Source: Nitrospirota bacterium
GTDB taxonomy: Bacteria > Nitrospirota > Thermodesulfovibrionia > UBA6902 > DSMQ01
Length of the DNA: 64,000 bases
Reading direction: 5' to 3'
Assembly (NCBI GenBank): GCA_016212185.1
Contig: JACRGX010000056.1
Location: 31,240 to 95,239, forward strand
Of this stretch, positions 1 through 26,427 are shown piece after piece. A model generated the notes under the pieces. It was not told the DNA's origin. It worked only from the letters and a program-made list of their open reading frames with translations, and searched no databases. How positions within the stretch are numbered: the first letter of the stretch is position 1; the number at the start of each line of letters is the position of its first letter. The position numbers and the translations under genes are program-made.

Positions 1-686
1 AGGATAACATTTATACAGAAAGTACATTTGTAACTGCACCCGATGCCGGTTATAATAGGATACACAAGGCAGTTTTTATATGCATCGCCATAAAAATCCT
101 CAACAGCTATTACATTATTTCTTGAATAACGTAGATGGTCTATCAAAGAAAAGTCCAAGGCAGGGATATTGCTGAGGTCATCTTTAACGGGGTTGGGGGG
201 GGTCTGTACTATTGAATGCTTCGCAGTCTTATAATATACTCCCGGAACTCCAGAGAGGTCCCCGCCTTCGGACAATGTCAAGCTTAGCGGGATAATCGTA
301 GCCGCCGCATCATTTACCACTACAATATCTACTGCCTTATCTTCAACGGTCTGCTCCGGGAAAAGTGTTGGGTGAACCCCTCCCCATACTATCACTGCAT
401 TGCTGTGTCTTTGCTTTATTGCCTGCGACACATGATATGCCCACGGCAGTTGCACAGTCATTACCGAAAAACCGACGAATATAACTCTTTCGTCAATTTC
501 TTTAAGAATAGAGTTTACAGCCTCATCAATCCTCTGATACCTGCCGTCAACCACAATGACTTGAAAACCTGCGTTATGGAGTATTGTTGCAAGAACCATT
601 ATTGCAGTATTCGGATAGGCGCCATATGACATAATCTCCTGAAAATGTGTGCCGGGGTTTACCAGAATTATCTTATTCTTCTTCAT
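1..686 (-). CDS. B12-binding radical SAM protein (N-terminal part; C-terminus lies beyond window start)
   Basis: Manual translation of minus strand from ATG at 684-686: MKKNKIILVNPG... Rossmann-like cobalamin-binding N-domain followed by GIGCSYKCTFC (CxxxCxxC). Open to position 1; not in ORF track because it runs off the window. Confidence 0.65.
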   Translation of the reverse strand, partial: MKKNKIILVNPGTHFQEIMSYGAYPNTAIMVLATILHNAGFQVIVVDGRYQRIDEAVNSILKEIDERVIFVGFSVMTVQLPWAYHVSQAIKQRHSNAVIVWGGVHPTLFPEQTVEDKAVDIVVVNDAAATIIPLSLTLSEGGDLSGVPGVYYKTAKHSIVQTPPNPVKDDLSNIPALDFSLIDHLRYSRNNVIAVEDFYGDAYKNCLVYPIITGIGCSYKCTFCINVI

Positions 687-2304
687 AGTATTTTCTGTGA
701 GTAAAAATTTTCATCTTAGATAAAAAAGTCTTTATAGTTAACTGCAACGCATAACCAATGCGTCCATGCCAGTAATACATTACAGCATAATCCTGTCTGT
801 TATGATTGCCTATATTCTGCTTGCAGCGTTCAATATCTTTTATGAAACTATACTCGCTGTAAAGTGATTCAATCAAATTCCTGCCCTCAGTTGTCATATT
901 GGATCTTATATAGCACCAGTAAAGCAACGGCACATAAGGCAGAAAAATCTCTCTGTTCATGCGCGGAGGATAATCGGCAAGCCATTCTCTTTCCATAGCC
1001 TGCAATTTCTCACCTCTTAAATATATCTTCCTGATCCAGAGGCTTTGCAGTATCCACTCCATATAACTGCCACGAAGCCATTTCTGCAGCAACAGGATAT
1101 CTTTAAGGTCAACCCTGCAGAGAAACAATTTTTCTATTTCATTTGAAAAAGGTATGCATGAAAATTTTTTATGTGCAAGTGACAATGCTTTTAAAGCCTG
1201 CGGCATACAGCCGGTAAACGCCCAAAAAATTGAGAGCAGTGACATTCTTTCCTCGGGTTTGTATAATTCTCCTTTATTCGCTATTTTCTTTATTCTGTCA
1301 AGGGTCTTCTCCAGCGCCAGTTCAGGGGAAACAGCAAGATGAGTTTTAAATATCGGGGCATAAACATCCATTTTTCTTTCTTCCACAATATGTAATATAT
1401 TTTTTATGTCCCCCCCGCTGTTTACTATCATATTGTCTAAAAGATTATGGAAAAATGTTTTCCTTCCCGCCGGCACTGCCACTACCGGCACATTTCTTTG
1501 CAGGGCATCTATAATCACCTGAGAGTTCCCACGGTTAAAAAGCACATCGGCAATGTCCAGAATATGATCTATGGGTGTATATTGATTTGCAATTTTTGCA
1601 TCAGGGGCATGCCTTTTTATAAATTCATAGATGTTTTTGTCCTGTTCGGCAGGATGGGGTTTAACAATAAGCTCATATCTCGCAGGCAGTCCTTTTGATA
1701 TGCACGCAAGCAGCTCTTTCCTGACTGCAGGAGTTTCTCCGCTTGGCGTCAGATATGCAAGACTCAGCACCGCTACGAGTTTGTTGTCGGATATCTTTAG
1801 TTCTTTTCTTAACGCTTCTTTCTTGTTTGAATCGGATGAATATAATTTTTTATACCTGAATACGCACCCAGTGGTTTCAACCACATCGCCGGGAACCCCT
1901 GTTTCAATAAACTTCTGCTGCTCATATTCCGACGCAACAAGCAAATGGTCAACAGGCAAAAAATATTCGTTTACAAAACCCTGCTCCAGCATCATCTGAA
2001 GTACCTCCTCAATTGCAATTACAGGAACTCCGAGCAGTGCAGCTTTCTGAATCAGATTGAGATGAGGCATTCTCGGTTGCGCTGAAAAGAGTATTAAAGC
2101 CTTTACATTGTCAAACAGCCCTTCCGGGGGATACCCGTCATTTAAAAAAAAGTTCCCGTTAATATGCCTTTTTTTATCAGAAAACCATTTAAGCTTAGGG
2201 TTATAAACACACTTTATATCCCATCCGGGCAGGAACTGCCTGAAGATTTCTATACTTCTATCGTGAACAATACTGACAGGATTAAAAAGAAGGGTATTCT
2301 TCAT
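673..2304 (-). CDS. TagF/Capsule_synth-like Rossmann-fold glycosyl- or phosphotransferase (putative)
   Basis: 543 aa ORF; motif LIVKPHPAEQ (KxHP-type motif of CDP-glycerol glycerophosphotransferase/capsule-synthesis families) followed by conserved C-terminal block; paralogous to 3 other ORFs in the locus. Confidence 0.4.
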   Translation of the reverse strand: MKNTLLFNPVSIVHDRSIEIFRQFLPGWDIKCVYNPKLKWFSDKKRHINGNFFLNDGYPPEGLFDNVKALILFSAQPRMPHLNLIQKAALLGVPVIAIEEVLQMMLEQGFVNEYFLPVDHLLVASEYEQQKFIETGVPGDVVETTGCVFRYKKLYSSDSNKKEALRKELKISDNKLVAVLSLAYLTPSGETPAVRKELLACISKGLPARYELIVKPHPAEQDKNIYEFIKRHAPDAKIANQYTPIDHILDIADVLFNRGNSQVIIDALQRNVPVVAVPAGRKTFFHNLLDNMIVNSGGDIKNILHIVEERKMDVYAPIFKTHLAVSPELALEKTLDRIKKIANKGELYKPEERMSLLSIFWAFTGCMPQALKALSLAHKKFSCIPFSNEIEKLFLCRVDLKDILLLQKWLRGSYMEWILQSLWIRKIYLRGEKLQAMEREWLADYPPRMNREIFLPYVPLLYWCYIRSNMTTEGRNLIESLYSEYSFIKDIERCKQNIGNHNRQDYAVMYYWHGRIGYALQLTIKTFLSKMKIFTHRKYYEEE

Positions 2305-3218
2305 TTAGCATTTTTCTTTAGATTATAATAAGCTGTATTTGTAGCGCCGACTTTAGAATTTTTTATCGTGGTGTATACCAGGACATCATCTCTTTTATGC
2401 AGCTGGTCGCATACATTACAAAAGGGAAACTTGTAAAAATTCCCTTCCTGGTGCGCCTGCCTGAACGCATTATACTCTTTGCTATGCAATACCTCGTGCA
2501 GAGTCTGTTTTTTAAAATCGCCTAAAACAATCTTGCTGTCATAATCAAAGCAGCAGGGAACCGCCAATCCGTCCCACTGCACCTGAACAGGCCCTGTAAA
2601 CGGACGGCCGCAGCTGGTTTTTTTCTCATCAAAGGGTCTGTATGTTCTTCCGTCTCCCCAGTTATGGGGCTTCCATACAGAAATGCCATCAGCTATTTCT
2701 TCATAACGCCTGAGAAAATCCTTCATCTCATGCTCATTTTCCGGCATTAATAAAAAATACATTTCTATCCTTAATTTACTGTTTTCCCTCCGGCGGGTCT
2801 CAAATAAATTCGCGACATTTTTACTGACATCTTCAAAAGACAGCCCTTTATGTATTCCTTCATAGGTTAACTTTGTTGTCCCGTACATGCTGATGCGTAT
2901 TTTATCAAACAGGTCTGCAACCTTTTCCGCCTTCTTTTCATCAAGAATGGAGCCGTTTGTTATGGTGTAAACCTCAAGTCCCTTTGATTTTGCATATTCA
3001 GCGCGCTCAAAGATATATGGATCCAGAAAGCTTTCCCCGTAATTTTCAAGCGAAACCAGCTTAGCCCCGCCGCCTACGGCTTCATCCAGAACTTTTTTAT
3101 AAAGGTTAAGGTCGAGGACGCCCTGGCGCCGTGTCATCCTCTCGCGCGGGCACATTATACATTTTGCATTACATTTGTTTGTTACTTCAAAACGTATTTC
3201 CGGGTTAATTAATTTCAT
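2301..3218 (-). CDS. radical SAM protein with C-terminal Cys-rich (SPASM/twitch-like) region
   Basis: N-terminal CNAKCIMCPRE (CxxxCxxC) radical SAM motif; C-terminal PCCFDYDS...CNVCDQ cysteine cluster. Confidence 0.7.
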   Translation of the reverse strand: MKLINPEIRFEVTNKCNAKCIMCPRERMTRRQGVLDLNLYKKVLDEAVGGGAKLVSLENYGESFLDPYIFERAEYAKSKGLEVYTITNGSILDEKKAEKVADLFDKIRISMYGTTKLTYEGIHKGLSFEDVSKNVANLFETRRRENSKLRIEMYFLLMPENEHEMKDFLRRYEEIADGISVWKPHNWGDGRTYRPFDEKKTSCGRPFTGPVQVQWDGLAVPCCFDYDSKIVLGDFKKQTLHEVLHSKEYNAFRQAHQEGNFYKFPFCNVCDQLHKRDDVLVYTTIKNSKVGATNTAYYNLKKNAK

Positions 3219-3278
3219 TTCAAATCCGCCTTTTCTTAGATTTATTTAAAAATACTATACAGCATTTTCATATTCCGG

Positions 3279-5189
3279 TTATTTTCTTATGAGCAGATCT
3301 TTGAAATAAGCGCTCAATTTTACTATTTCCTTATCATCAAAAACATGCTTTGCCCATACAGCTTCAGGCACTGTCCCATGAAAATGGTTTTTAATCAGCC
3401 AATTCAGCGCCCACGGGAAATTATCTGCCGAGTTCACATAATAGCATGAATCCGGCTCAGGCTTTGTCTCAGGAGCAAGTATCTGACATGGTATGTGGCA
3501 GTATTTACCTGTGGGATCATACTGCAAAACCGGAATTCTGTTTTGCAGGGCTTCTTCAATCGTTGTTGATGAGTAACTGACAAGCATGTCAGAGAGGGAC
3601 AGATACTCTTCAAACGACCCTTCGGTATGGATGTCGTAACAATCGGATTCAACCAATAAAGACTCTAAATCATTTTTTGATAAATAATCTTTCGGCCTGA
3701 ACCGGATAATTAAATGTAAATCACTAACTTTTTCCACAGCACTGATAAGTGAGTTCAGATTGCCGATATATTCATCCACTGTCTGATAAACATAAAATCT
3801 TAAATCATTATGCAGTCTGGGAGTATCGGCATGCAGTAGTATGATTTTATTTTCATACCCTCGAAGAAGTTTTTTTCTTAAAAGCACCCTCGTGTTTTCA
3901 TTTTTGTTAACCTTTGCAAAAAGTAGCGGACCTGTAATAATATGTGTGCTCCGTGTTGAAATCTCCTGAAGATATGCCCTTGCCCATGGAGATTGAACGG
4001 CAATATATTGATAGCGGGTATTCACTAAACCAAGACCGTGTTCCTTCCATTCCATCATCTCATACTGGTTTTTGGGAGGGACATGCGAACCATGTGAAAC
4101 CAGCAATGACGGTATATTATATAAAGAAGCGAGTTCACCGAGGTTATAATTCATAAACCTTGCCATCTGCGAAATAATAATTGCCGGTCTTAATTTCTTT
4201 AAAAACCCGTTTAGATGTAAGGTTTGATTATGTATATTAGAAATAGTGGAAACAATGTCGTCCCTGATTTTTTTAAATACTATCTCTTTAACGCTAATCC
4301 CTCTGTAGCTGAAAATTTCATCGCTGCCCGCTGATTCCCAAAGTCTTTGTACCGATTGATTTATTGTTTTTTTAAATCTTTTTTGTTTTTTGCCGCCAAT
4401 AACCGGCAAAGGGAAAAAAATATCTCCATCAGCCCTGAATAAAAAACTTAGTATTGAACTGGGATTTTTATCTGCCAAATAAAGCACACGGGCATCTGGC
4501 AATACCGGCATTAATTCATTGATGACCCTCTGAAAGTTATAACTCATTGACGGTGCAATAATAATTTGCCGGGCTTTAAGCAGACTGCTCATCGACAGTA
4601 TTAATTTATAGATAAGAAACTTACATAAATCAGAAGCATTTTTTTTAACCGCTCCGGCTGCCGGATTCCTGCTTATATGGACGCCCTGCATTAATTCATG
4701 TGCTATGCAGAGCTTTTCAGATATCCTCTTGCTGATAGTTCCTGCATATCCTTCGCTATCGGACAAATATGGATTAAGCGAATAGCTGCCGTCTCTTGAA
4801 AATGCGATTATTTGCTCAATATTCCAAAGTAAGCAGGCCCTGTAAATAATTTCAATAAGCCATAAAAAATAATGAATAAATGTTCTCAGGTAAAAGAGAA
4901 CGGTTATGTTATATCCCTGTGTTATTCTAAGTTCATCCTCTATCGTTAATAGAGATTCGCAGAATTTGTATATCTCATCCGATTTCAGTAATGCCTGTTC
5001 ATGCCCTTCTCTTCCAAAAAGTTCATAAGTGGTAAAAAAACGGATTCCATTGCGTTTTAACTGCAGTTGTGCCTCAGGGAGAATTGCAAGAACATAAGTG
5101 TCTTCCTTCCTTAGTTCCTCAATAGACCTCCGGGCGATGAAGGAATCTACTTCGTCTTTGAATTCAAATATGATAAGGGTTCTGCTCAA
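3279..5189 (-). CDS. hypothetical protein, TagF/Capsule_synth-like C-terminal domain
   Basis: 636 aa; C-terminal IIRFRPKDY...SYSSTTIEEAL pattern parallels KxHP paralogs 673-2304, 12548-14632, 14632-15678. Confidence 0.3.
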   Translation of the reverse strand: MSRTLIIFEFKDEVDSFIARRSIEELRKEDTYVLAILPEAQLQLKRNGIRFFTTYELFGREGHEQALLKSDEIYKFCESLLTIEDELRITQGYNITVLFYLRTFIHYFLWLIEIIYRACLLWNIEQIIAFSRDGSYSLNPYLSDSEGYAGTISKRISEKLCIAHELMQGVHISRNPAAGAVKKNASDLCKFLIYKLILSMSSLLKARQIIIAPSMSYNFQRVINELMPVLPDARVLYLADKNPSSILSFLFRADGDIFFPLPVIGGKKQKRFKKTINQSVQRLWESAGSDEIFSYRGISVKEIVFKKIRDDIVSTISNIHNQTLHLNGFLKKLRPAIIISQMARFMNYNLGELASLYNIPSLLVSHGSHVPPKNQYEMMEWKEHGLGLVNTRYQYIAVQSPWARAYLQEISTRSTHIITGPLLFAKVNKNENTRVLLRKKLLRGYENKIILLHADTPRLHNDLRFYVYQTVDEYIGNLNSLISAVEKVSDLHLIIRFRPKDYLSKNDLESLLVESDCYDIHTEGSFEEYLSLSDMLVSYSSTTIEEALQNRIPVLQYDPTGKYCHIPCQILAPETKPEPDSCYYVNSADNFPWALNWLIKNHFHGTVPEAVWAKHVFDDKEIVKLSAYFKDLLIRK

Positions 5190-5200
5190 GGTTAATGCAG

Positions 5201-6574: not shown

Positions 6575-6714
6575 TCTTATCTAAATTCCTCTCGAATAAA
6601 AGAATTCATTGTAAATTTAACAATGCAAATTTAGCATTTAAAATTTGAAATGTTAATTGATAATTTTGCAATTTAAAATGTTCAGCATTATTTCTCTGCG
6701 TTCTCTGTAGTAAA

Positions 6715-7434: not shown

Positions 7435-7484
7435 CGTTCTCCTTTCTACTATTGAGTAAGCACTGTGTAATAAATGTCCGAGGT

Positions 7485-10359: not shown

Positions 10360-11145
10360 TTACTCCTTTCTCAAGATTGCATAGTAATAGCGCCATCCGG
10401 CACGGTGATAAAAAGTCGGTTTATCCTTGCACAAGTCACCTTTATGAAGGTAAAATTCAGCAGTAAACCCCTCTTCCTTAAAAATATCCTTCAGCTCTCT
10501 TATTGTCCTCCAGTGCTCTCCGTCAAAGGGGTTTGGCGACCTCAAATTTTTAAGATCAAACCCGAGTTTCTTTTTATTCCCTAAGTGTTTGAAATAGGAA
10601 ATAAAACGTTTTATCACCCAGACTGAATTCACATAATGCTCATTCGCTATCAGCACCCTGCCTTCCGGATTGAGCAGTTTTCTAATGTTCCTGAAAAGCT
10701 CCTGGATATATTTATCATAACAGTGATGAAATGAAGCGCATAAAACAAAAAGGTCAATTTTTTGAGTGATAGCAATTTCTTCAAAATTGCCGTTTAAAAT
10801 AGTAACTTTTCCTTCCGGCGCCCTTAAGTGTTTAAAGACACATTCAGCATGCCTGAGCCGTTCAGCGCTCGGTTCAACTGAATAGACATGCTTCACATAA
10901 GGCAGGTTTGCCAGTATCGCAGAAGTCCAGCAGATGCCTGAACCTATATCTGCCACTGTTATCCCTTTTTTGAGCCTTTCACTCCCAAAATGTCTCTGCA
11001 TCTCTTCAACAGCTTCTTCAAAATAGGGTTTAAAATTTGACTTTACTTCAAGCTGTTCCATCAGCCGGCTGAAGCTCTCTTTTGTTTCATCCACCTGCCA
11101 GTGCAGTGCCAGTGATTCATCTACAAATCTTTGCGCTATTTTCAC
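10360..11145 (-). CDS. class I SAM-dependent methyltransferase
   Basis: VADIGSGICWTSAILA glycine-rich SAM-binding motif. Confidence 0.7.
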   Translation of the reverse strand: MKIAQRFVDESLALHWQVDETKESFSRLMEQLEVKSNFKPYFEEAVEEMQRHFGSERLKKGITVADIGSGICWTSAILANLPYVKHVYSVEPSAERLRHAECVFKHLRAPEGKVTILNGNFEEIAITQKIDLFVLCASFHHCYDKYIQELFRNIRKLLNPEGRVLIANEHYVNSVWVIKRFISYFKHLGNKKKLGFDLKNLRSPNPFDGEHWRTIRELKDIFKEEGFTAEFYLHKGDLCKDKPTFYHRAGWRYYYAILRKE

Positions 11146-11171: not shown

Positions 11172-12518
11172 CTATTTATCCGGCTTATCCGCCATAAAGT
11201 ATGATAAAGCCCCTTTCCATGCACTCAGTTCAAAAACGGCCATCCACGGCATGGGGTAAAGCCTGTTAACAAACATCCATGTAAGAATAAAAAAGGTAAG
11301 ATAAGCAAGGAAAGTTGCCTGCGCCGCACCAATGGCTCCATTAATCCTAATTAGTGCAAAGTTGGCGGCAACTGCCACCAGCCCCGACAGGAGTGTTATC
11401 CATGCAAGCAGATATGTCTTCCTTGAGAATGTGATGAATATCGCGAGAAGCCGGTACATTGCAAAGGCAACCTGCGACATTGCTATCCAGAAAATAAATA
11501 CCCCTGCACCGTAAAACCTCTCCCCCACAAGAAGCCTGAGGATGTAAGGGCCCGCCATTGATATAACAAATGCCGCCAGAATAAAAACGGCCAGATATAT
11601 GATAAAAAAGCAGACGAATTTTTTCTTCCCATTATCTTCATCCTTTCCAAGCATTCTATATATATGCGGGGAAACAGCATTGTCAAACGGAGCGGCAAGC
11701 ATAATGATAACTGTGCCAAATGTATATCCGACATTATAAACACCCAGTGTTTCCATCCCAAACATGGCATTTAAAAAAAACTTATCAATAGTCCCTATCA
11801 TCATAAGCCCGAGAGAATGAGGGAACAGCGGGAAGCCGAAAATTGCCACCTCTCTGAAATATTGCTTATTCAGCCGGAAATGCAGCCCGTCCTCTTTCAG
11901 AAGAAAGTAGAAACTAATCCCGAAGAAAATGATTTCAGCCATAATTATTCCGGCTATTCTTCCGCGCCAGTCAAACCAGAAAAAGGATATCATCAGGAAG
12001 GATAACCCTATATTCAGAAACGATTTGGCAACCAGAGTCGTCCCGTAGTGCAAAGGCTTTTCCTGATATATCCATAATTTAGCTTTGAAATTTCCAAATG
12101 ACGAAAAAAGCGCAAGCAGTGGAACAAACCATACCCACAGAACAGGAAAGTGCAGTTTATCTGAAATGACGCCCTGCAAAAAACACAGCAGTATTGCAAC
12201 AATAAAAAACAGCGCCAGATTGAATGCCATCGCATTAAATATGTAGCCCGGGAAGTCAAACCCTTTTTGATTCCTGTCAACCTGCGCCCTGCAGACAGCC
12301 CCGGCAGACGACATGGTTACCGCCGGCTCCATATTAGACCTGATGGCATTGAACGTTCCGATATAGCCATAATCGGCAGGCGTCAGCCAACGCGTCAGAA
12401 TTGGCAGAAAAACGAAAGGGACGGCCATATTGATTGTATTGCTGACCAGATAGATGCTGCTTGAAAGAAAAAATTTTTTTATATTTTCAGATAAATTCAT
12501 ATCTCTAAATCTGTCCAA
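11172..12518 (-). CDS. Wzx-like oligosaccharide/polysaccharide flippase (MOP superfamily)
   Basis: 448 aa, about 12-14 predicted TM helices, polysaccharide biosynthesis protein architecture. Confidence 0.65.
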   Translation of the reverse strand: MDRFRDMNLSENIKKFFLSSSIYLVSNTINMAVPFVFLPILTRWLTPADYGYIGTFNAIRSNMEPAVTMSSAGAVCRAQVDRNQKGFDFPGYIFNAMAFNLALFFIVAILLCFLQGVISDKLHFPVLWVWFVPLLALFSSFGNFKAKLWIYQEKPLHYGTTLVAKSFLNIGLSFLMISFFWFDWRGRIAGIIMAEIIFFGISFYFLLKEDGLHFRLNKQYFREVAIFGFPLFPHSLGLMMIGTIDKFFLNAMFGMETLGVYNVGYTFGTVIIMLAAPFDNAVSPHIYRMLGKDEDNGKKKFVCFFIIYLAVFILAAFVISMAGPYILRLLVGERFYGAGVFIFWIAMSQVAFAMYRLLAIFITFSRKTYLLAWITLLSGLVAVAANFALIRINGAIGAAQATFLAYLTFFILTWMFVNRLYPMPWMAVFELSAWKGALSYFMADKPDK

Positions 12519-17984: not shown

Positions 17985-18788
17985 TCACTTAACAGCAAAT
18001 ATAATTATATTCCAGCAGTATCTTTTTAAAAAAGGGAGTTGGTGTAAAAAATAATTATCAATCCTTTCCAGCCTCATATAGGTCTTTTCAAGTTTTCTGT
18101 GTTCCTTGAGAATTTTTTTCCAGTATCTTTCTTTGTTGGGGTCCACCCTGTCAATAAGATAATATTTAATGAATATCCAGAGAAGAAAGAACCATGTCGC
18201 ATAAGTTTCCAGGCGTGAAAAATATTTATTAAATATTTTCAGATCCCTCATGCTGAGCGGATGCTCATCTTCTGTTCTGACCTCATTGGCTATCCGCCTG
18301 TATATATTCAGTAGGATATTATGCGCAAGCGGGTCCCATGATACGAATATTCCGCCTTTTCTCAAAACCCTGTGAGCTTCTCTGACTGTACTTTCAATAT
18401 CAACATGATGAAGCAGGTTTGCGGCATAAACGATATCAAATGTCTCGTCTTCAAAAATAGTCTTATGTGAGTCTAACTGCTCGGTCAGTATGCTGACGCC
18501 GTGTTTTGAAGCAACTTTCTTTACGACTTCAAGCATCCCGGCTGAAATATCCGTCGCAATGACATCAGCGCCCTTTTTTGCAAAATATACAGAAGCCTCT
18601 CCAGCGCCGCAGCCGAGTTCCAGTATCTTTTTACCTTTCAGGTCTCCCAGTTTCCTGATAATCAGCCTGTTTTCAGGGGAAGTGCATGCCTCAAAAGATT
18701 CGTCAACCATGACCTCGTTAATATTTATTGAATCCGCCCACCTGTCATGGAATATCTCTTCTTTCCGGAATGCCTTATTCTCTGTCAC
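17985..18788 (-). CDS. class I SAM-dependent methyltransferase
   Basis: ILELGCGAGEASVYFAKKGADVIATD motif I. Confidence 0.75.
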   Translation of the reverse strand: MTENKAFRKEEIFHDRWADSININEVMVDESFEACTSPENRLIIRKLGDLKGKKILELGCGAGEASVYFAKKGADVIATDISAGMLEVVKKVASKHGVSILTEQLDSHKTIFEDETFDIVYAANLLHHVDIESTVREAHRVLRKGGIFVSWDPLAHNILLNIYRRIANEVRTEDEHPLSMRDLKIFNKYFSRLETYATWFFLLWIFIKYYLIDRVDPNKERYWKKILKEHRKLEKTYMRLERIDNYFLHQLPFLKRYCWNIIIFAVK

Positions 18789-18813
18789 AAAACCCTTTTA
18801 ACAAAAATGAGGC

Positions 18814-19758
18814 TTATTCAATATTTTTTCTGCCCTCTATTAAATATAACGGCCTGTTTTTTGCCTCTTCAAATATTCTGCCGATATATTCACCTACAAT
18901 GCCAAGCATAATAATCTGAAAGCCCCCTATTATTACAATTGTAATGATTACGGTAGATATACCCGGAGCAGACAGATGGGTAAATAATCTAAGATATGCT
19001 ATAAAAAGTCCTCCTAAAACGCCTACCCCCACTATCGCAATCCCAAAATATGTCGCAATCCTCAGGGGCACATTAGAAAAAGAAAAGACTGCGTCCAGCG
19101 CAAAGTTGACCATTTTGCTTACCGGATACTTAGTCTTGCCGGCATATCTTTCATCCCTTTGATAAACCAGGGGAGCGCTCTTAAAACCGCACCATGGAAC
19201 CATCCCCCTTATGAAACGGTGTTTTTCCCTCATCTGATTAAGCGACTTTAAAACCCGGCGCGTTATAAGACGGAAATCTCCGGTATCAGCCGGGATACTG
19301 ATATTGCACATTTTGTTCAGAAGCTTATAAAATATTTTGGCTGTAAATTTTTTAAAAAAAGAATCCCCCTTACGCTGATCTCTTTGCCCATAAATAATGT
19401 CAAATCCTTCTTTCGCCTTTTTGTACATATCCTCTATAAGCTCAGGCGGGTCCTGCAGGTCCCCGTCAATTATGGCGACATAATCAGCGTCTGCGTGGTC
19501 AAGCCCTGCTGTGACAGCGATCTGATGACCAAAATTCCTGCTAAGATTAATGACCTTGATGCAGTCGTGCTTATCAGCATATTTGTGCATCAGTTCTAGG
19601 CTCCGGTCTTTTGAGCCGTCATTTATCAATATAAAACTAATATCCAACTCACTGAGCTTTTCCTTAAATGCCAACAGCCTTTTCAGCAGCTCGGTAATGC
19701 AGAGCTCCTCATTATATACAGGAATTATAACCTCTAATTTTTCTTTTTCCTGTAGCAT
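18814..19758 (-). CDS. GT2 polyprenyl-phosphate glycosyltransferase (ArnC/GtrB/DPM1-like)
   Basis: VIIPVYNEE...LINDGSKDRS, DGDLQDPPE, C-terminal TM helices. Confidence 0.75.
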   Translation of the reverse strand: MLQEKEKLEVIIPVYNEELCITELLKRLLAFKEKLSELDISFILINDGSKDRSLELMHKYADKHDCIKVINLSRNFGHQIAVTAGLDHADADYVAIIDGDLQDPPELIEDMYKKAKEGFDIIYGQRDQRKGDSFFKKFTAKIFYKLLNKMCNISIPADTGDFRLITRRVLKSLNQMREKHRFIRGMVPWCGFKSAPLVYQRDERYAGKTKYPVSKMVNFALDAVFSFSNVPLRIATYFGIAIVGVGVLGGLFIAYLRLFTHLSAPGISTVIITIVIIGGFQIIMLGIVGEYIGRIFEEAKNRPLYLIEGRKNIE

Positions 19759-20651
19759 GCTGTTATTACACCTCCATTCCCCGGGAATAGTGAATCATAC
19801 AGTGAAAGCAATATTGCCGGCATAAGAAATAGAACTGCCAATGCATAGTTATAAATATCCAGAAACAGCAGTCTCTTTTTGCTTTTGTCAAAAACCTGCA
19901 TCCGTTTTTTTCTGTAATAGAAATAGTTGTGCGTAGAGTTGCATTTATTCATAAATCCCTGCAGATATCCAAAAATATTATATACCGACGACCTGAAGAT
20001 TTGGACCTTATCAAAACCGGAATTCTCCATAAGTCTGTTTAATGAGTCGGCAGAAAACTGATGAATATGGTTCTGCAGGTCATAAAATGCATAACCCTCA
20101 CCGAAGAGTCTGTACTGCAGGGAAAAGTTATTTGGGACAGAAATAACGATTCTTGTATTATCAAACGAGAGGCTCCTGACATGGCACAATATCTTTTTTA
20201 TATCATCTGCAGGCATGTGCTCCAGTGAATGCCAAAATGTAGCTACTGATATAGGACTTGTAATGGCGGCTACATCTGTCATAATATTCAACCTCAGCAC
20301 ATCTCTTGAAAACCTGATACATTCAGGCGTTATTTCAATACCGGCATGATTATGGAACATCTTCTTGTTATTAAAGAGAAACTTGCCGGAAGAGGCTCCT
20401 ACATCAAGAAGAAAATCATGCGCCTTAGAGCAATTTGCAATTACGCTCCGCTTAAATTTCTCAAGTAAATCAATTTTTTTGACCTTTTCCTCTGATAAAA
20501 TATCATTTATGATAAACTGCTGCTTATTTTTTTCTTTAAGCATCTCATGGCCGCAAACCGAACATTTCACATATGCATTTTCTCTTGCATTAGAAATTAT
20601 TTTGCCGCCGCATATAAAACATACCTGATCGAAGCTTCCATTAATGCCCAT
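19734..20651 (-). CDS. zinc-ribbon-containing class I methyltransferase (sugar C-/N-methyltransferase-like)
   Basis: N-terminal CFICGG...CSVCGHE zinc-binding domain followed by MTase fold (LLDVGASSGKF). Confidence 0.55.
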   Translation of the reverse strand: MGINGSFDQVCFICGGKIISNARENAYVKCSVCGHEMLKEKNKQQFIINDILSEEKVKKIDLLEKFKRSVIANCSKAHDFLLDVGASSGKFLFNNKKMFHNHAGIEITPECIRFSRDVLRLNIMTDVAAITSPISVATFWHSLEHMPADDIKKILCHVRSLSFDNTRIVISVPNNFSLQYRLFGEGYAFYDLQNHIHQFSADSLNRLMENSGFDKVQIFRSSVYNIFGYLQGFMNKCNSTHNYFYYRKKRMQVFDKSKKRLLFLDIYNYALAVLFLMPAILLSLYDSLFPGNGGVITACYRKKKN

Positions 20652-20679
20652 ATATTATCAGCTTGTGCATGAATTATTA

Positions 20680-22161
20680 TCAAAACCAGTCTACTGAAAA
20701 TGCCGCCTTAATCGTAGCGAATAAGGTTTTGTTCCTGACAGAGTGTATAAACCTTCTCAAGATGTACTGCGGGTTTAAATAAAAATTCCGGTAAAATTTT
20801 TTCTGAAATTTCTCAATTATCTCCCACTCAAGCGAAGGATGCCTGTAGACTTCTTTGGGAGAAGTATATACATTATATTCTCTATAATCTCCCGGCGGTT
20901 TCAACAGGCCGAGTTCTCTGTATTTATTATGAAGGGGGGATCCCGGAAACGGCATAATGAGACTGGCCTTGGCAAAATCAAGAGGGAGGCTTCTGGCAAA
21001 TCTGACTGTATCCTGCATAGTATCTTCTGTGTCGTCAAGGAACCCGAACATAAAATATCCAAAGACTTCCAGCCCGGCTTTCTTTGCCATCTTTACTGCT
21101 GATTCAATCTGGGATAAAGTGATCTTCTTGCCCAAATTATCCAGGACACTCTGGTTTCCGCTTTCCATACCAAATGAAAGTCTGTAACAACCCGCTTTAC
21201 GCATCTTGACTAATAGCCCCGGAGTTACCCTATCCACTCTTATCCCGTTTATACAAGCCCAGGTGACAGATAAATTCCTGCTGATTAACCCGTCACATAT
21301 TTCTTCTGCACGTTTCATATTGGATGTAAAACCATCATCGGCTATCAAAAATTCTCTGACACCCATCTTATAATAAAACTCAATTTCATTAAGGACTCTG
21401 ACGGATGATTTCGGTCTGAACGTCTGCCCATGAACCACTTTATTGCAGATCATGCAGTCAAACGGACATCCCCTGCTTGTCTCTATCCACAAAACAGGAT
21501 TTTGCCGTGCATGCATATTGGGCAGATAATAATTTGATAAATCATAAAGAGAGTACTCAGGAAAGGGGAATTTGTCCAGATCTTTTAAAAAACCTGTACT
21601 CGGCCTTATATGAAGGCTGCCGTCATTTTTTTTAAAAGCCAGACCTTCTATGTCTTCAGGATTAATGCCATTAAGAAACTGCCTGAAAGATATTTCCGCT
21701 TCTCCTATAAAAAGGTAATCAAAGCAGTTATTGTTCAGAGTATCTTCAACTGTAGAACTTGCATGCGGGCCTCCAATCAATATCCTGGCGCCAGGCTGCT
21801 TTTTCCTGATAAATCTTGCTATTTCCAACACATGAAAATAAATAGCAGTTGTGCCGGTTAAACAAACATATGCCGGATTAGGCGATAATTTTCCCTCCAG
21901 TATTTTTTCAAAATTATCATAGAGGGTCAGATCTAATACCTCCGGAATATATCCGGATTCTTTAGCCGCAGCGCCTAAAATCGCAAAGGCCAGTGAAGGC
22001 AGATGAAAGGAGCCTACTTTGACAGAAACATTTTCATAGACCTTTTTTTCATCCGGTATTATAAATAGTATTTTTTTGTCGTCCATGTCTAGTTTTATAC
22101 TTATCTCATCCTTGAAAAAAGCTTGCCCCATAGCTTTATATTTATCTCTCTCGGCAGGCAT
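20680..22161 (-). CDS. B12-binding radical SAM protein
   Basis: N-terminal cobalamin-binding-like domain then TSRGCPFDCMICNK (CxxxCxxC). Confidence 0.8.
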   Translation of the reverse strand: MPAERDKYKAMGQAFFKDEISIKLDMDDKKILFIIPDEKKVYENVSVKVGSFHLPSLAFAILGAAAKESGYIPEVLDLTLYDNFEKILEGKLSPNPAYVCLTGTTAIYFHVLEIARFIRKKQPGARILIGGPHASSTVEDTLNNNCFDYLFIGEAEISFRQFLNGINPEDIEGLAFKKNDGSLHIRPSTGFLKDLDKFPFPEYSLYDLSNYYLPNMHARQNPVLWIETSRGCPFDCMICNKVVHGQTFRPKSSVRVLNEIEFYYKMGVREFLIADDGFTSNMKRAEEICDGLISRNLSVTWACINGIRVDRVTPGLLVKMRKAGCYRLSFGMESGNQSVLDNLGKKITLSQIESAVKMAKKAGLEVFGYFMFGFLDDTEDTMQDTVRFARSLPLDFAKASLIMPFPGSPLHNKYRELGLLKPPGDYREYNVYTSPKEVYRHPSLEWEIIEKFQKKFYRNFYLNPQYILRRFIHSVRNKTLFATIKAAFSVDWF

Positions 22162-23798
22162 CCTGCAAAAAACAGCAGAAGTTTTGTTTTCACTCCCAGA
22201 ATTACGACACTTCTCTTTTTATCAATAGCTTTCAATAGTCTATGCGCTACATATTCGGGCGTCAGTAGTCCTTTACCTTCATTAACAACTTTTACACCGG
22301 CTCCTTTTTGAAAATTCGTGAATGTGCCTGATGGCGAAAAAGTGATTACCTTATTTGTCTTTCTCAGTTCATAGGAAAGCGCCTCTGACCAGTTTGCCAG
22401 AAACGCTTTTGAAGCAGAATACAATGACATTCCGGGCAGAGGATTATACGCAACACTGCTTGCGACGTTGACAATCACGCTCCTGTTTTCAATTAAAGCA
22501 TCAAGCATTAATTTCGTAAAAATAACCGGATAAAATATATTTACATCTACCGTCTTTCTGATTTTTTCAAGGTCAATTTCACGCAGCGAGCCCCGGAAAC
22601 CAACGCCGGCATTGTTTACCAGACAGAATATTTTGTACTGTTTTACGTTATCTGCCAGTCTTTCAATTTCACCGTATCTGCCCAGGTCAGCCCTGAGGAC
22701 AGTCTGGTTTTTAAAGCTGTCAAGGTTATTTGTGTCTTTATCAATCAGAATCAGTTTCTTGTTCAGAGCGTTCAGCTTCCTTGCAAGCTCAAGCCCTATC
22801 CCGCTGTTTGCCCCTGTGATTACCCAATAGCCGTTATGTATATTCGTTGAGATAATTTCATCCGCACCGTCAATTAACCTCCTGACGCCGTCAATCTGAA
22901 AATCCTTTCTGAAATCCGCGTCTTCGGCATATAGATAATCCAGAAAAAGGTTTGAGACGGTTACCGGCAGTCTGTGATGAATTCTTTTAAACAAAAAATG
23001 AAGCGCCGGCATACTGATCTGTCCGGGCTTTCTGTTCCGGATCCTGCTGTAAATGATATTGAAAATATTTCCGATGGACAATGCCTCAGTCTCGGCAAAA
23101 TAAATCTTGTTTATGACTCTATCGTTATTGATGCACCTGACAAATGCCCGGCAGAGATCATCCGTATGTATCAAAGATACCTTGCCGGGAAAGCCCACCC
23201 GGGAAACAGGGCTGTTCTCGTACACCATAGATACGAATTTGTTGATATGCGAGTCTGCTCTCATATTTTTTCCATAAACCCAGGTTGGCCTGATTATTGT
23301 ATGCGGGATACCGCTTTTTTTAATATATTTTTCGGATTTTAATTTAGACTCCCCGTACAAAGACCTGGGGTTGGGAGAGCTCTTAACCGTCATAGGGTTA
23401 CTGCAATCATCGCCTTTGCTCCTGTCAACCGCCCCTATGGTGCTGACAAAGATAAAGTTCCTGAGGCTGCTACTCTTTTTAAGCAGGTCTACTATCTGAA
23501 CAGTGGGATCATAGTTAACCTTGTCATAATTAATGTCACTGCCAAAAACAGGATTTGCCGCAATATGGAAAAAGTATTCACACTGCAGTATTTCGTCTTT
23601 AAATTTTGTTATCTCTTCAAGGCTCCCGTTCAACTGTGTTATCCTGCTGTCGTCAAATAACGCCTTTTTCCGCACCAGCACAAAGCACCTGTCATCAGCT
23701 CCCATGGCAGGATACAGCTGCTCCATGAAGTTCTTTCCGATAAAACCAGTTGCACCTGTTATAAAAATATTCATTCTCTCCCGTCTCTGTCGTTCCAC
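22101..23798 (-). CDS. fusion of NAD-dependent epimerase/dehydratase domain and short-chain dehydrogenase (SDR) domain
   Basis: N-term IFITGATGFIGKNF and YGESK; C-term VITGANSGIGLELARKL and YSASK. Confidence 0.65.
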   Translation of the reverse strand: MERQRRERMNIFITGATGFIGKNFMEQLYPAMGADDRCFVLVRKKALFDDSRITQLNGSLEEITKFKDEILQCEYFFHIAANPVFGSDINYDKVNYDPTVQIVDLLKKSSSLRNFIFVSTIGAVDRSKGDDCSNPMTVKSSPNPRSLYGESKLKSEKYIKKSGIPHTIIRPTWVYGKNMRADSHINKFVSMVYENSPVSRVGFPGKVSLIHTDDLCRAFVRCINNDRVINKIYFAETEALSIGNIFNIIYSRIRNRKPGQISMPALHFLFKRIHHRLPVTVSNLFLDYLYAEDADFRKDFQIDGVRRLIDGADEIISTNIHNGYWVITGANSGIGLELARKLNALNKKLILIDKDTNNLDSFKNQTVLRADLGRYGEIERLADNVKQYKIFCLVNNAGVGFRGSLREIDLEKIRKTVDVNIFYPVIFTKLMLDALIENRSVIVNVASSVAYNPLPGMSLYSASKAFLANWSEALSYELRKTNKVITFSPSGTFTNFQKGAGVKVVNEGKGLLTPEYVAHRLLKAIDKKRSVVILGVKTKLLLFFAGCLPREINIKLWGKLFSRMR

Positions 23799-25015
23799 AA
23801 CCGCTGCGGAATATTTGAAGCCTTAGGCCATTTTTTCCCGTCTCTGTACCGGAATTCCCTTTCCTTTCCGTAAACATTATACTTGCGCTTAATCATATTT
23901 ATTGTCTCAAACAGCTCATCTTCTTCAACCGGCTTCAGCCCCGAAGCTCTGGCTTTAAACTGTAAGCGCACCCGTTCTCTGATAGTAGAAAATGATCTTG
24001 CGGAAAGGGTGATCTCCGGGAAACTTCCAAAATTACAGCCTGAACACTTATGTGTTATGCTTCTTACCTTCTCACGAAACTCCCGCGACTTAAAAATCTT
24101 CGGGAACTCAGGGTCAGACACGTATATGTCCTCCTTTAGTTTATAGTCACAGCATGGAGCAAACCGCCCGTCAGGCAGGATGACAAAATACAGATACGGG
24201 GAATCGCAGATCCCTTTATGCCGCCAGTCAGGACTGCCGGTGGTAATAAAATGATGCACTGAATCAAGGTAGTCGTCAGAATCAAACAGTTTAGCGCCCT
24301 CCCGTTTTTTCTTTTTCAGTCTTTCAATAAGCGCCCTGATTTTGGGAAAGTCTTTTTCATTAAAACTGAACAATTCATCATAACCCCTGAAATTCAGCGG
24401 AGCGTCAGGATTTGTGATATGTACCGGAACGAGGGACAGCCACCAGCCTATCTGTGTTGCAAAATCAAGCACTGCCTCTATTTCGTCAATATTATAACTT
24501 GACATAACACACCCCAGCGCACAGATGGAATCACTGCGGGGGAAGGTCCTTGATATAAATGATATTGTCCTGATTGCATTCCTCCATGACCCTTCTGCGC
24601 CGTTGATGTAGTCCGAGAGCCGCTCGTCCAGGGAATCCAGGCTCACATTAATATCCCTTGCGCCGTACTGGACGCATTTGCGGATTTTCTCCCTTTTTGA
24701 GTACAGCCCGGCAGTTTGAAGCCTTATGTCCAGCCCTCTTGATTTAAATATGCGAACTATTTCATCAATGTCGTCCCTTAAAAAAGGCTCCCCTCCGGTC
24801 AGCAAAACAACGCCTGCCCCTACCTTGACGAGATTATCGGCAATCATCCCAATATTTTCGGTTTTAAAAGGGTGGATATCGGCATTTGCCTCAACTATAT
24901 TGCACATCTTGCATTTCAGATAGCAGACGTTTGAAACATAGAACTGCACATAAAAAGGAGACCTTTTTGTCAGTAGCGCTTTTGCCATTGATAATTTAGT
25001 GCGGAAAGTAAACAT
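23771..25015 (-). CDS. radical SAM protein with SPASM-like C-terminal domain
   Basis: SNVCYLKCKMCNI CxxxCxxC; C-terminal APCCDYK...CSGCNFG cysteine clusters. Confidence 0.75.
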   Translation of the reverse strand: MFTFRTKLSMAKALLTKRSPFYVQFYVSNVCYLKCKMCNIVEANADIHPFKTENIGMIADNLVKVGAGVVLLTGGEPFLRDDIDEIVRIFKSRGLDIRLQTAGLYSKREKIRKCVQYGARDINVSLDSLDERLSDYINGAEGSWRNAIRTISFISRTFPRSDSICALGCVMSSYNIDEIEAVLDFATQIGWWLSLVPVHITNPDAPLNFRGYDELFSFNEKDFPKIRALIERLKKKKREGAKLFDSDDYLDSVHHFITTGSPDWRHKGICDSPYLYFVILPDGRFAPCCDYKLKEDIYVSDPEFPKIFKSREFREKVRSITHKCSGCNFGSFPEITLSARSFSTIRERVRLQFKARASGLKPVEEDELFETINMIKRKYNVYGKEREFRYRDGKKWPKASNIPQRLWNDRDGRE

Positions 25016-25017
25016 TT

Positions 25018-26427
25018 TTATGAACTCAATACGGATTTAAGCTTGACAAACAACGCCCTGCCGCCGCGCTTTTTAAGAACAAACTCCCTGAAAAGCCTCT
25101 TGAGCGGTTTTAGTCTTAAATAAAATTTCATATACGCATATCTCTGCAGCTGTTTCAGCTTCTCAGGGGAAACAAGACTGTTCCTAAAAATCACCTTGTC
25201 AGGCTTCATATCGTCCCAGTTGATTCTGTCTATCTCAAGCGCCCCGCCTGCAACAAGTTCATCAAATATCTCAGAACCGGGCAGGGGCATGAAAATTGAA
25301 AAATTCGTTTTATCAATATCAAGCTCAATCGCAAAATCAATGGTCTTCCTTATATCCTCTTCTGTCTCATCCGGAAAGCCGACCATAAAAAGCCCCTGAG
25401 GAACAACCTTTGAGCGTTTTACCATAGCGACTTTTTCCCGTATCACTTCAGTTGAAATATTCTTCTTCATGCTCTTCAGTATCCTGTTGTTTCCGCTTTC
25501 TATGCCGACAGAGATATACCGGCAGCCGGCCTTGTACATAATATCAAGAACTTCATCGTCCAGCGTATCAAGTCTTACGCCGTTGGAACATTCCCATTTC
25601 AGATTTAGTCCGCTTTTTATTAAACCTTTGCAAAGATCAATAAAATAATTACGGTTCAGTGTCAGCTCATCATCACTGAAATTAAAACCCTCAATTTTAT
25701 GAGTTTCCTTAAGAAACCGCAGTTCATCAATAACATTTTCTACTGAACGATATCTCATTTTGCGCCCCACAATAGAATGGGCTGCGCAATATTTACACTG
25801 GAAAGGGCATCCTCTCGTTGCCATAACCGGAATAAAAGGCAGTGATGTGAGAAAGTCAGGATAGTCTTCAATACTGACGTCTTCCCACTGGATGCGCGGC
25901 AGTCTGTCAAGCTCATCAACTGCCACACATTTGTTTTGTACAACACCTTTTTCCCTTCTGTAGGCAATGTTCGGAGCTTCCAGCAGCGGCTTCCCTGCAA
26001 GAACCTTTTCACAAAAAACGGGAAACCCCGCCTCCCCCTCTCCTCTGAAGACATAATCTATCCCCGGCATATCTTCAAGAATATATTCCGGCAGGCATGT
26101 AGGATGAGGTCCGCCTGCAACAGTTACACATTCAGGAAGAACCTGTTTTGCAATCAATGACATCCTTTTTACTGAATTATGGTCCACAGAGAACATTTTA
26201 AACCCGATAGTCTTTATATGAAGGTTTGCCTGAAGTATCTCCCTGAATTTTTCTTCGGTTATACCGTCTTTAGGGCAGTGCATTATTGTTGAAACAATAC
26301 CCTTAGCCTTTAGTGCGCTGTAAATATGAAGAAGTCCGAGGTCTATCGTGATACCGGAATAACCCTTCCTGACCGGCACAACCAGCAAAATGTCTGATGT
26401 AATTTTATTATTCCCCTGCTGAAACAT
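25018..26427 (-). CDS. B12-binding radical SAM protein
   Basis: N-terminal B12-binding-like domain; ATRGCPFQCKYCAAH CxxxCxxC. Confidence 0.8.
   Translation of the reverse strand: MFQQGNNKITSDILLVVPVRKGYSGITIDLGLLHIYSALKAKGIVSTIMHCPKDGITEEKFREILQANLHIKTIGFKMFSVDHNSVKRMSLIAKQVLPECVTVAGGPHPTCLPEYILEDMPGIDYVFRGEGEAGFPVFCEKVLAGKPLLEAPNIAYRREKGVVQNKCVAVDELDRLPRIQWEDVSIEDYPDFLTSLPFIPVMATRGCPFQCKYCAAHSIVGRKMRYRSVENVIDELRFLKETHKIEGFNFSDDELTLNRNYFIDLCKGLIKSGLNLKWECSNGVRLDTLDDEVLDIMYKAGCRYISVGIESGNNRILKSMKKNISTEVIREKVAMVKRSKVVPQGLFMVGFPDETEEDIRKTIDFAIELDIDKTNFSIFMPLPGSEIFDELVAGGALEIDRINWDDMKPDKVIFRNSLVSPEKLKQLQRYAYMKFYLRLKPLKRLFREFVLKKRGGRALFVKLKSVLSS

Follow-up and report, generated by a model that had tools for sequence, protein, structure and literature searches.

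Two conserved radical SAM cassettes in a surface-glycan operon of a Nitrospirota genome, one of them joined to a predicted GtrB/YfhO-type glycosylation pair

The stretch of DNA analyzed here (the window) comprises 64,000 nucleotides of a Nitrospirota metagenome-assembled genome (MAG; GenBank assembly GCA_016212185.1, contig JACRGX010000056.1, positions 31,240 to 95,239) and contains, within a surface-glycan operon, five radical S-adenosylmethionine (SAM) enzymes (rSAMs), three of them B12-binding and two SPASM-like, together with three class I methyltransferases. A sequence-only reading had listed these genes and assigned them to one sugar pathway; Pfam and motif checks uphold the inventory and its coordinates, and the sugar context of the rSAMs is correct, but they are split over two cassettes, each conserved on its own, and at least three routes to nucleotide sugars are encoded in the operon as well. 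Two conserved rSAM cassettes thus describe the locus better, and in the best overall model, which we consider somewhat probable, both contain glycan-tailoring rSAMs, cassette 1 being an rSAM-decorated GtrB/YfhO-type system. The two cassettes are composed of the following genes.

Cassette 1 (17985-28898):
17985..18788, minus strand: class I methyltransferase of the Methyltransf_11 type (Pfam, 83 bits)
18814..19758, minus strand: family 2 glycosyltransferase (GT2) of the GtrB/ArnC/PgfS polyprenyl-phosphate type, with two C-terminal transmembrane (TM) helices
19734..20651, minus strand: zinc-ribbon class I methyltransferase with a C-terminal membrane anchor (Pfam Methyltransf_23, 54.6 bits; CxxC...CxxC)
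20680..22161, minus strand: B12-rSAM B, 493 amino acids (aa), the variable member of the cassette (Pfam B12-binding and Radical_SAM)
22101..23798, minus strand: double short-chain dehydrogenase/reductase (SDR), an extended SDR with the fold of nucleoside diphosphate (NDP)-sugar epimerases/dehydratases fused to a classical SDR (Pfam Epimerase and adh_short)
23771..25015, minus strand: SPASM1, a 414-aa rSAM with a truncated SPASM/twitch-like domain (Pfam Radical_SAM, 80.6 bits; SPASM, 22.4)
25018..26427, minus strand: B12-rSAM A, 469 aa, the constant rSAM of the cassette (Pfam B12-binding, 50.6 bits; Radical_SAM, 99)
26433..28898, minus strand: polytopic membrane protein of 821 aa, a divergent YfhO-like transferase of the GT-C fold (fold search and profile-profile comparison)

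Cassette 2 (1-7434, continuing past the window start):
1..686, minus strand: B12-rSAM C, the N-terminal 228 aa of a 523-aa protein, whose gene runs past the window start and is complete in contig L091
673..2304, minus strand: 543-aa protein without a Pfam match; weak match to TIGR04326, surface carbohydrate biosynthesis (28 bits, cut-off 250)
2301..3218, minus strand: SPASM2, a 305-aa, BtrN-like rSAM with a SPASM/twitch-like tail (Pfam Radical_SAM and SPASM)
3279..5189, minus strand: 636-aa protein without a Pfam or NCBIfam match; a 32% identical counterpart holds the same position in locus L092
5201..6574, minus strand: GT2-cytidylyltransferase fusion (Pfam Glycos_transf_2 and CTP_transf_3), with a 59% identical orthologue in L092
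6715..7434, minus strand: cytidylyltransferase, PseF/KdsB-like below the equivalog cut-offs (Pfam CTP_transf_3, 88 bits; PseF, 88 against 206)

The CxxxCxxC motif is present in all five rSAM open reading frames (ORFs), as CSYKCTFC (3-686), CNAKCIMC (2301-3218), CPFDCMIC (20680-22161), CYLKCKMC (23771-25015) and CPFQCKYC (25018-26427), and Radical_SAM (PF04055) scores above its gathering threshold in the four complete genes as well as in the full-length version of 1-686. The three B12-rSAMs have the N-terminal B12-binding Rossmann domain fused to the rSAM core that defines class B: B12-binding (PF02310, cut-off 32.1) scores 62 bits in 3-686, 42.3 in 20680-22161 and 50.6 in 25018-26427, and both domains are present in the full 523-aa B12-rSAM C of L091. 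Their mutual identity is 23-27%, and A, B and C therefore belong to three subfamilies. SPASM (PF13186, cut-off 21.5) reaches 50 bits in 2301-3218 and 22.4 in 23771-25015; a full SPASM domain has seven cysteines (CX9-15GX4C ... CX2CX5CX3C ... C), whereas both tails keep only Cx12-13Gx4CC...CxxC and are, as judged from this pattern, truncated, twitch-like domains. In SPASM1 the cysteines C270, C288, C289, C324 and C327, plus C169, are invariant over four orthologues. Five rSAM genes in 26 kb are far above the genome-wide density generally expected of such genes and, since they recur as conserved cassettes elsewhere, their clustering is selected and not due to chance.

Cassette 1 occupies about 11 kb and its gene set (two B12-rSAMs, a SPASM-like rSAM, two methyltransferases, the double SDR, the GT2 and the 821-aa GT-C) recurs, in shuffled order, in about nine independent loci, among them L002/L003 (Magnetococcales), L087, L088, L089, L090, L094/L095 and L096, with L004 as a partial case; the approximately 820-aa GT-C and B12-rSAM B are usually, not always, among the recurring genes. 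A search that started from the GT-C yielded L094/L095, L096 and L098, all with the same partner genes. L004, whose sequence has frame problems and stop codons, was used through its called-gene table only, and shows a GtrA gene adjacent to the partial cassette. Orthologues of B12-rSAM A are few and 52-67% identical, those of SPASM1 are 43-72% identical, and those of the methyltransferase 17985-18788 (47-69%) are found in L002, L004, L087, L088, L089 and L090; B12-rSAM B has orthologues of 61-65% in L087/L088 and of 33-35% in L002 and L094/L095, and none in L089 and L090. More distant homologues of B12-rSAM A (at most 41% identity), collected by a profile scan of genome contigs, lack the cassette, and the association is therefore specific to this orthologue group.

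Two tailoring enzymes of the cassette have features that place them at the membrane. The methyltransferase 19734-20651 has an N-terminal zinc ribbon and a C-terminal TM helix that is present in all four orthologues, while the double SDR, which has orthologues in all cassette loci and in L089 (7523-9976) is further fused to a methyltransferase domain to give an 817-aa protein, ends in a basic amphipathic tail with the conserved motif LPR..(.)..LW..L. For 19734-20651, the zinc ribbon proposed earlier was found, while the resemblance to C-methyltransferases was not, as the protein matches generic Methyltransf_23 only and no NCBIfam family. A TylC3-type NDP-hexose C-methyltransferase was also considered and rejected: Methyltransf_13 and Methyltransf_14 are not found in it, and the membrane anchor replaces the C-terminal domain.

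The GT2 of cassette 1 is of the GtrB type. In the PDB it matches GtrB (5ekp) with an E-value of 5e-85 over its full length (residues 7-308) and ArnC with 9e-45; its best NCBIfam model is PgfS (280 bits, cut-off 500), followed by ArnC (179, cut-off 529), both matches being sub-equivalog. Its TM helices (240-258 and 270-288) are kept in five orthologues, and orthologues in six loci are 42-68% identical. The 821-aa protein (HZA10_06145), with about 12 TM segments, gave no match by sequence in PDB, Pfam (even at E<=5) or NCBIfam, and the gathering score of Pfam YfhO (PF09586) is not reached. Its structural model (pLDDT 80, pTM 0.85) shows TM helices bundled at the N-terminus, then an extracytoplasmic domain, then one last TM helix; the 11 detectable relatives collected have invariant acidic residues after TM1, and the multi-TM core and the extracytoplasmic loop after TM1 with conserved acidic residues are those of the GT-C fold. 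A hidden Markov model (HMM) scan of 1.84 billion representatives returned 29 matches to the family, about 10 of them full length, and the weak HMM matches are Pfam YfhO proteins; profile-profile comparison of the family with YfhO gave 99.5% probability and E 1.5e-22 over 647 columns. Thus, the protein is a divergent YfhO-like GT-C of a new, very small family, and the two proteins are predicted to be a GtrB/CsbB-type donor synthase and a divergent YfhO-type GT-C, a pairing characteristic of glycosylation in the periplasm from polyprenyl-phosphate sugars (PMC11127046; PMC5836110; PMC8035078). This pair was overlooked when CMP- or UDP-sugars (cytidine monophosphate or uridine diphosphate) were first proposed as the rSAM substrates, and points instead to a lipid-phosphate-linked donor.

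In cassette 2, B12-rSAM C and SPASM2 lie beside cytidylyltransferase genes, and this arrangement recurs elsewhere. SPASM2 belongs to a well conserved family (50-75% identity, at least 461 clusters), with orthologues of 72% in L092 and 64% in L093. L092 keeps it with a cytidylyltransferase (54% identical to that at 6715-7434), the GT2-cytidylyltransferase fusion, a protein of about 630 aa and a B12-rSAM, while in L093 it adjoins a 60% orthologue of B12-rSAM C. Downstream of the cassette, L091 carries NDP-6-deoxyhexose genes.

As to the reactions catalyzed, no rSAM of the window reaches the cut-off of any curated NCBIfam family (HpnJ, BchE, PhpK/Sden_1168, MgmA, HpnR, KedN5, TsrM, AprD4, and the C-methylases of ribosomally synthesised and post-translationally modified peptides, RiPPs). 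The best scores of B12-rSAM A are 196.5 bits for HpnJ (cut-off 577.6), 189 for the Sden_1168 P-methylase (575) and 185 for BchE (481), each about a third of its cut-off; the best scores obtained with MgmA and AprD4 are 138 against 360 and 105 against 500. HpnJ is the top model for both B12-rSAMs of cassette 1, with 189-196 bits over nearly the full length. The closest solved sequences of the rSAMs act on sugars or cyclitols (BtrN, DesII, BlsE and AprD4, the last with 1e-18 to 2e-26), at about 20% identity: B12-rSAM B matches AprD4 (1e-18) and MgmA (1.5e-17), SPASM1 matches BlsE (3e-10) and MoaA, and SPASM2 matches BtrN (1e-14) and DesII (1e-4). The AlphaFold2 model of B12-rSAM A (pLDDT 89.7) retrieved with Foldseek AprD4 (TM-scores 0.74/0.76) and MgmA (0.70/0.78), then TsrM, CysS, the ring-contracting OxsB, and TokK. 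The proposal that these enzymes methylate unactivated carbons as GenK and Fom3 do is not borne out, since no curated methylase family is matched and AprD4 fits the model as well as MgmA. Indeed, the nearest characterised relatives include the non-methylating AprD4, HpnJ, BchE, BtrN, DesII and BlsE. AprD4, a sugar diol dehydratase, has the same domain and yet binds no cobalamin (PMC12931638), and even the usual residue on the lower face is absent from MgmA (PMC11796369). C-methylation by the B12-rSAMs is therefore possible from these comparisons, and not indicated over dehydration, epimerisation or rearrangement, because AprD4 and MgmA are resembled about equally and the best families are HpnJ, BchE and the P-methylase.

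The wider family of B12-rSAM A has more than 596 genome matches and is abundant in uncultivated anaerobes. Among 80 genome loci, a GT2 is a neighbour in 27, in many cases less than 100 bp away from the rSAM gene, and other common neighbours are NDP-sugar SDRs, GT4, GT9, methyltransferases, SPASM rSAMs and DegT sugar aminotransferases; two or more paralogues occur in 22 of the 74 loci with a member of the B12-rSAM cluster, with a maximum of seven. Seven B12-rSAM paralogues lie within about 21 kb in both L062 (Planctomycetales) and L082, and the 15-kb locus L093 (ENA contig NODE_2_length_428992) has six rSAM genes, interspersed with those for GT4, WecG and NDP-sugar enzymes. The description of the set as unusually dense consequently holds against model organisms, but not against such MAG loci: dense rSAM sets in glycan loci are a recurrent, uncharacterised feature of uncultivated anaerobes.

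The remaining genes of the operon include the following.

7590-8666, minus strand: YiaK-like Ldh_2 dehydrogenase, kept in L090
8669-9889, minus strand: GFO/IDH/MocA oxidoreductase, kept in L090
9894-10349, minus strand: YhcH/YiaL (DUF386) protein, inside the glycan operon
10360..11145, minus strand: third class I methyltransferase, outside both rSAM cassettes (Pfam Methyltransf_25/11)
11172..12518, minus strand: Wzx-like polysaccharide flippase of the MOP family (Pfam Polysacc_synt, 61.6 bits; about 8 hydrophobic segments)
28920..37596, minus strand: nucleotide-sugar supply block (Pfam, NCBIfam), made of the next eight genes
28920-29738, minus strand: stand-alone cytidylyltransferase
29784-30323, minus strand: GNAT
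30330-31703, minus strand: amidase
31729-32874, minus strand: WbuX N-acetyl-sugar amidotransferase (NCBIfam, 336 bits, cut-off 203)
32901-33935, minus strand: NeuB-family synthase (NeuB, 280 bits against a cut-off of 400)
33966-35384, minus strand: GT2-cytidylyltransferase fusion
35395-36393, minus strand: extended SDR
36406-37596, minus strand: SqdB-like UDP-sulfoquinovose synthase (SqdB, 567 bits against a cut-off of 575)
37760-38281, minus strand: UpxY-family, NusG-like antiterminator at the operon head (NCBIfam UpxY, 139.8 bits, cut-off 100)
38278-38886, minus strand: MarR-like exopolysaccharide regulator at the operon head (NCBIfam MarR_EPS, 70.6 bits, below the cut-off of 88)

All genes from 38886 down to position 1 are on the minus strand. 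About 33 genes of the glycan operon lie inside the window and at least nine more beyond its start, as contig L091 overlaps the window at 100% identity and carries the operon at least 9.2 kb further. Gaps within the operon are mostly of 60 bp or less, several gene starts overlap the preceding gene, and a terminator scan found no enrichment of terminator-like sites in the operon over shuffled sequence. Given the single strand, the short gaps, the lack of terminator enrichment, the continuation in L091 and the UpxY head, this is one antiterminated surface-glycan operon of more than 48 kb, with an UpxY-type antiterminator at its head, and the region described here is its distal two thirds. Promoter-like sites on the minus strand are located at 38924-38896 (11/12 matches) and 37750-37723 (10/12); the 163-bp gap downstream of the UpxY gene (37597-37759) contains a promoter-like site and may hold an antiterminator target. 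The UpxY family, known chiefly from capsule loci of Bacteroides, is represented here in a Nitrospirota MAG.

The first biosynthetic gene of the operon, at 36406-37596, is a near-equivalog of SqdB/Agl3 (full-length match, E 2e-170) with a 42% homologue in L088, and for this reason suggests a sulfonated sugar in the predicted glycan. Both L090 and L094 hold, besides cassette 1, the WbuX, amidase and GNAT genes, at 50-75% identity, and a cytidylyltransferase gene; the first three enzymes probably make an acetamidino or unusual N-acyl group on a NeuB-derived ulosonic acid. As cassette 1 travels with WbuX, amidase, GNAT, cytidylyltransferase and DegT genes, its acceptor or companion sugar is probably an acetamidino-type ulosonic acid formed by the genes at 28920-35384. 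The window encodes two GT2-cytidylyltransferase fusions (5201-6574 and 33966-35384) and two stand-alone cytidylyltransferases, and only one NeuB-family synthase. The third methyltransferase (10360-11145), which has no orthologue in the cassette loci, lies just downstream of the YiaK-like/GFO/YiaL-like trio, and the YiaK/YiaL pairing recalls keto-acid-sugar metabolism. Relaxed Pfam thresholds gave noise only for the 543-, 636-, 694- and 348-aa proteins; a flagellin-glycosylation island (Maf) was considered for the large proteins without assignment and discarded, no Maf/DUF115 domain or flagellin gene being found.

Scans of the 64-kb window with Rfam (at gathering scores) and for tRNAs gave no match, and hence no cobalamin riboswitch. 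Upstream of the operon, an 88-aa ORF (38949-39215, minus strand) has a signal-peptide-like N-terminus ending in FSC, which is lipobox-like; it is possibly a small lipoprotein, not a RiPP precursor. The segment 45251-47882 (minus strand) carries a LarC-like nickel-insertion protein (45873-47051) and a LarB-like protein with an AIR-carboxylase domain (47148-47882), which belong to the nickel-pincer cofactor pathway, unrelated to cobalamin, and adjoin a zeta-toxin/AAA-like kinase (45251-45850). Neighbouring class I synthetase genes, one GlnRS-type (559 aa) and one GluRS-type (492 aa), are found at 48981-52209 (minus strand), and the window also contains housekeeping genes for NAD synthase, GpsA, SerA and PurA.

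In the model favoured here, the GtrB-like GT2 would load a sugar onto polyprenyl phosphate, and the donor sugar would first be remodelled by the co-inherited enzymes, that is B12-rSAM A, the optional B12-rSAM B, SPASM1, the double SDR and both SAM methyltransferases, of which one has a membrane anchor. The product is expected to be a methylated sugar, possibly also deoxygenated, C-branched or ring-rearranged, and the YfhO-like GT-C would pass it to an acceptor on the periplasmic side. Cassette 2, with B12-rSAM C, the BtrN-like rSAM, cytidylyltransferases and the NDP-6-deoxyhexose block, would tailor a second, nucleotide-activated sugar. Action of the rSAMs on the sugar that passes through the GT2 and the GT-C is an inference, as are the stage of their action (lipid-linked or nucleotide-linked sugar), the reaction type of each rSAM and the acceptor. 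A more specific version, which we put forward tentatively and regard as doubtful in its entirety, is that cassette 1 represents the first radical SAM chemistry, including that of B12-domain enzymes, on a polyprenyl-phosphate-linked donor: an undecaprenyl-phosphate hexose would be converted into a C-branched, deoxygenated or ring-contracted (carbocyclic, HpnJ/Cds-like), methylated sugar, which the new YfhO-related GT-C would install in the periplasm on a surface glycan containing nonulosonic acid.

Several points weigh against the favoured model. The entire case is built on MAG sequence. The top structural match of B12-rSAM A, AprD4, is cobalamin-free (PMC12931638); cobalamin binding is not readable from sequence, the paper on MgmA (PMC11796369) having yielded no diagnostic motif, and neither a cobalamin riboswitch nor cob/btu genes were found in the 64-kb window. 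The operon within the window has no dedicated GtrA-, SMR- or MATE-like flippase ORF: the Wzx-like protein at 11172-12518 is the only flippase gene of the window, and GtrA appears in the related locus L004 only. In L089 (11475-13775) and L004 (12740-14260) a large polytopic membrane protein lies beside the cassette without detectable homology to the 821-aa family; the GT-C partner is therefore not universal, and these proteins may represent a non-orthologous replacement of the transferase. Moreover, given the co-occurrence of cassette 1 with WbuX, amidase, GNAT, cytidylyltransferase and DegT genes, its enzymes could instead serve that CMP-sugar pathway, and the double SDR begins with a domain of the extended-SDR fold, as is typical of nucleotide-sugar enzymes; this fits tailoring before lipid loading, as with ArnA/ArnB.

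An alternative close to the earlier sequence-only reading, which we judge unlikely, is that all five rSAMs and the methyltransferases would act on soluble UDP-, CMP- or deoxythymidine diphosphate (dTDP)-sugars, the B12-rSAMs being cobalamin C-methyltransferases of the GenK/Fom3 type, and the GT2 and GT-C would use the finished product or be unrelated. It draws on the Pfam B12-binding scores above cut-off, on the cobalamin methylases MgmA, TsrM, TokK and CysS among the top structural matches, on the alignment of MgmA from residue 103, inside the Rossmann domain, on the NDP-sugar-type extended SDR domain of the double SDR, on the position of cassette 2 next to cytidylyltransferase and NDP-6-deoxyhexose genes, and on the Arn pathway, in which, as is well established, tailoring mostly precedes lipid loading. 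However, no methylase family comes near its cut-off and the non-methylases AprD4, OxsB, HpnJ and BchE match equally well; cassette 1 has no nucleotidyltransferase of its own, a membrane anchor is found in all orthologues of its zinc-ribbon methyltransferase, and the rSAMs, GT2 and GT-C are inherited together while gene order is shuffled.

Less probable still, and to be considered improbable, is that cassette 1 serves, instead of a glycan side chain, the synthesis or modification of a membrane lipid or glycolipid, either an HpnI/HpnJ-like or calditol-like headgroup or a methylated isoprenoid or alkyl chain, the GT2 forming a glycolipid and the double SDR resembling a fatty acyl reductase. HpnJ is the best NCBIfam model of both cassette B12-rSAMs, the SPASM-like rSAM weakly matches the tetraether synthase Tes and GDGT-MAS, the SDR matches NAD_binding_4 and the methyltransferases weakly match CMAS and UbiE; in addition, the adjacency of GT2 and B12-rSAM genes, common in the wider family, echoes that of HpnI and HpnJ (PMC13459092). 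Membership in the HpnJ family was nevertheless rejected, since the score is one third of the 577.6-bit equivalog cut-off and no squalene/hopene cyclase, other hopanoid or ether-lipid gene is present in the window or in the cassette loci. Furthermore, the GT2 is specifically of the GtrB/ArnC type (5e-85), the co-inherited YfhO-like GT-C belongs with transferases that use polyprenyl-phosphate sugar donors, and the cassette lies inside a polysaccharide operon together with the Wzx-like flippase, glycosyltransferases and nonulosonic acid genes. Finally, the idea that the rSAMs are RiPP or protein-modifying maturases placed by chance in a glycan locus is very improbable and was rejected, as the weak superfamily-level scores in favour (ApyD, 141-149 bits; rSAM_ocin_1, 89-90 bits; sactipeptide/PqqE-type models for the SPASM-like enzymes) are far below the cut-offs (750, 282 and others), the gaps around every rSAM gene (-61 to +60 bp) hold no small ORF outside the called genes that could encode a precursor, no peptidase, leader-binding or precursor genes are found, the relatives act on sugars and sugar enzymes are the neighbours in every related locus, so that the earlier placement in a glycan locus stands.

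Among known systems, the closest to the favoured model are CsbB/YfhO of Bacillus subtilis, Listeria GtlA/GtlB and PgfS/PgfM of Streptococcus mutans, described as multi-component transmembrane glycosylation systems (PMC5836110, PMC8035078). In these, as is predicted for the window, a GtrB-type GT2 forms a C55-P-sugar, from which a YfhO-family GT-C (about 800 aa) transfers the sugar on the outside of the membrane; the 821-aa protein shares the YfhO architecture, and the GT2 of the window scores best against PgfS. Unlike the window, they transfer plain GlcNAc, Glc or Gal, with no rSAM, double SDR or methyltransferases, and they belong to Gram-positive bacteria and act on teichoic acids or adhesins; conversely, the 821-aa family falls below Pfam YfhO detection and the window has no GtcA/GtrA flippase. 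The Gtr system of O-antigen glucosylation (GtrA/GtrB/GtrC) and the three-component systems for pentofuranoses (GT136) follow the same logic, from a polyprenyl-P-sugar synthase through flipping to the addition of a side chain to the finished glycan by a GT-C, and auxiliary SDR epimerases in the three-component systems can alter which sugar is added (PMC11127046). However, these systems have no rSAM or methyltransferase tailoring, use another GT-C family and include a dedicated flippase gene.

Tailoring of lipid-linked donors is known from ArnD and DprE1/E2. The Arn pathway (ArnA/B/C/D/E/F/T) and the mycobacterial arabinose donor of DprE1/E2 differ from the window in that the remodelling is hydrolytic or redox only, without radical SAM enzymes, and in that the acceptor is known (lipid A or arabinan). 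The nearest parallel for radical chemistry is given by HpnI/HpnK/HpnJ, which form the hopanoid cyclitol ether, and by the calditol synthase Cds: a GT2 puts a hexose on a lipid and an rSAM (of the B12-domain type in HpnJ) then rearranges the lipid-bound sugar, HpnJ and Cds being proposed as rSAMs that act on lipid-linked sugars (review PMC13459092). In the window, by contrast, HpnJ is matched at a third of its cut-off, hopanoid and archaeal lipid genes are lacking, the predicted carrier is polyprenyl phosphate and the GT-C would pass the sugar on. The literature searched on rSAMs with GtrB/polyprenyl, YfhO, O-antigen or nonulosonic acids described no rSAM case for cell-surface glycans, notably for lipid-phosphate sugar donors. 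Because the genes for donor synthesis, for transfer and for all of the tailoring are co-inherited in a portable cassette of about 11 kb, the role of glycan-associated B12-rSAMs becomes directly testable; the result would annotate much of the dark matter now labelled "radical SAM protein", and new sugar structures as well as a new GT-C family could come to light.

To our knowledge, sugar-tailoring radical SAM enzymes are known almost only from antibiotic pathways. GenK, Fom3, AprD4, BtrN, DesII and BlsE are, as is predicted for the enzymes of the window, rSAMs acting on sugars or cyclitols, but they work on soluble intermediates of secondary metabolism and not on donors for cell-surface glycans, while the rSAMs of the window match no equivalog model. 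Compared with these systems, cassette 1 is a rare, previously undescribed gene set, which points to novel radical chemistry on bacterial surface sugars.

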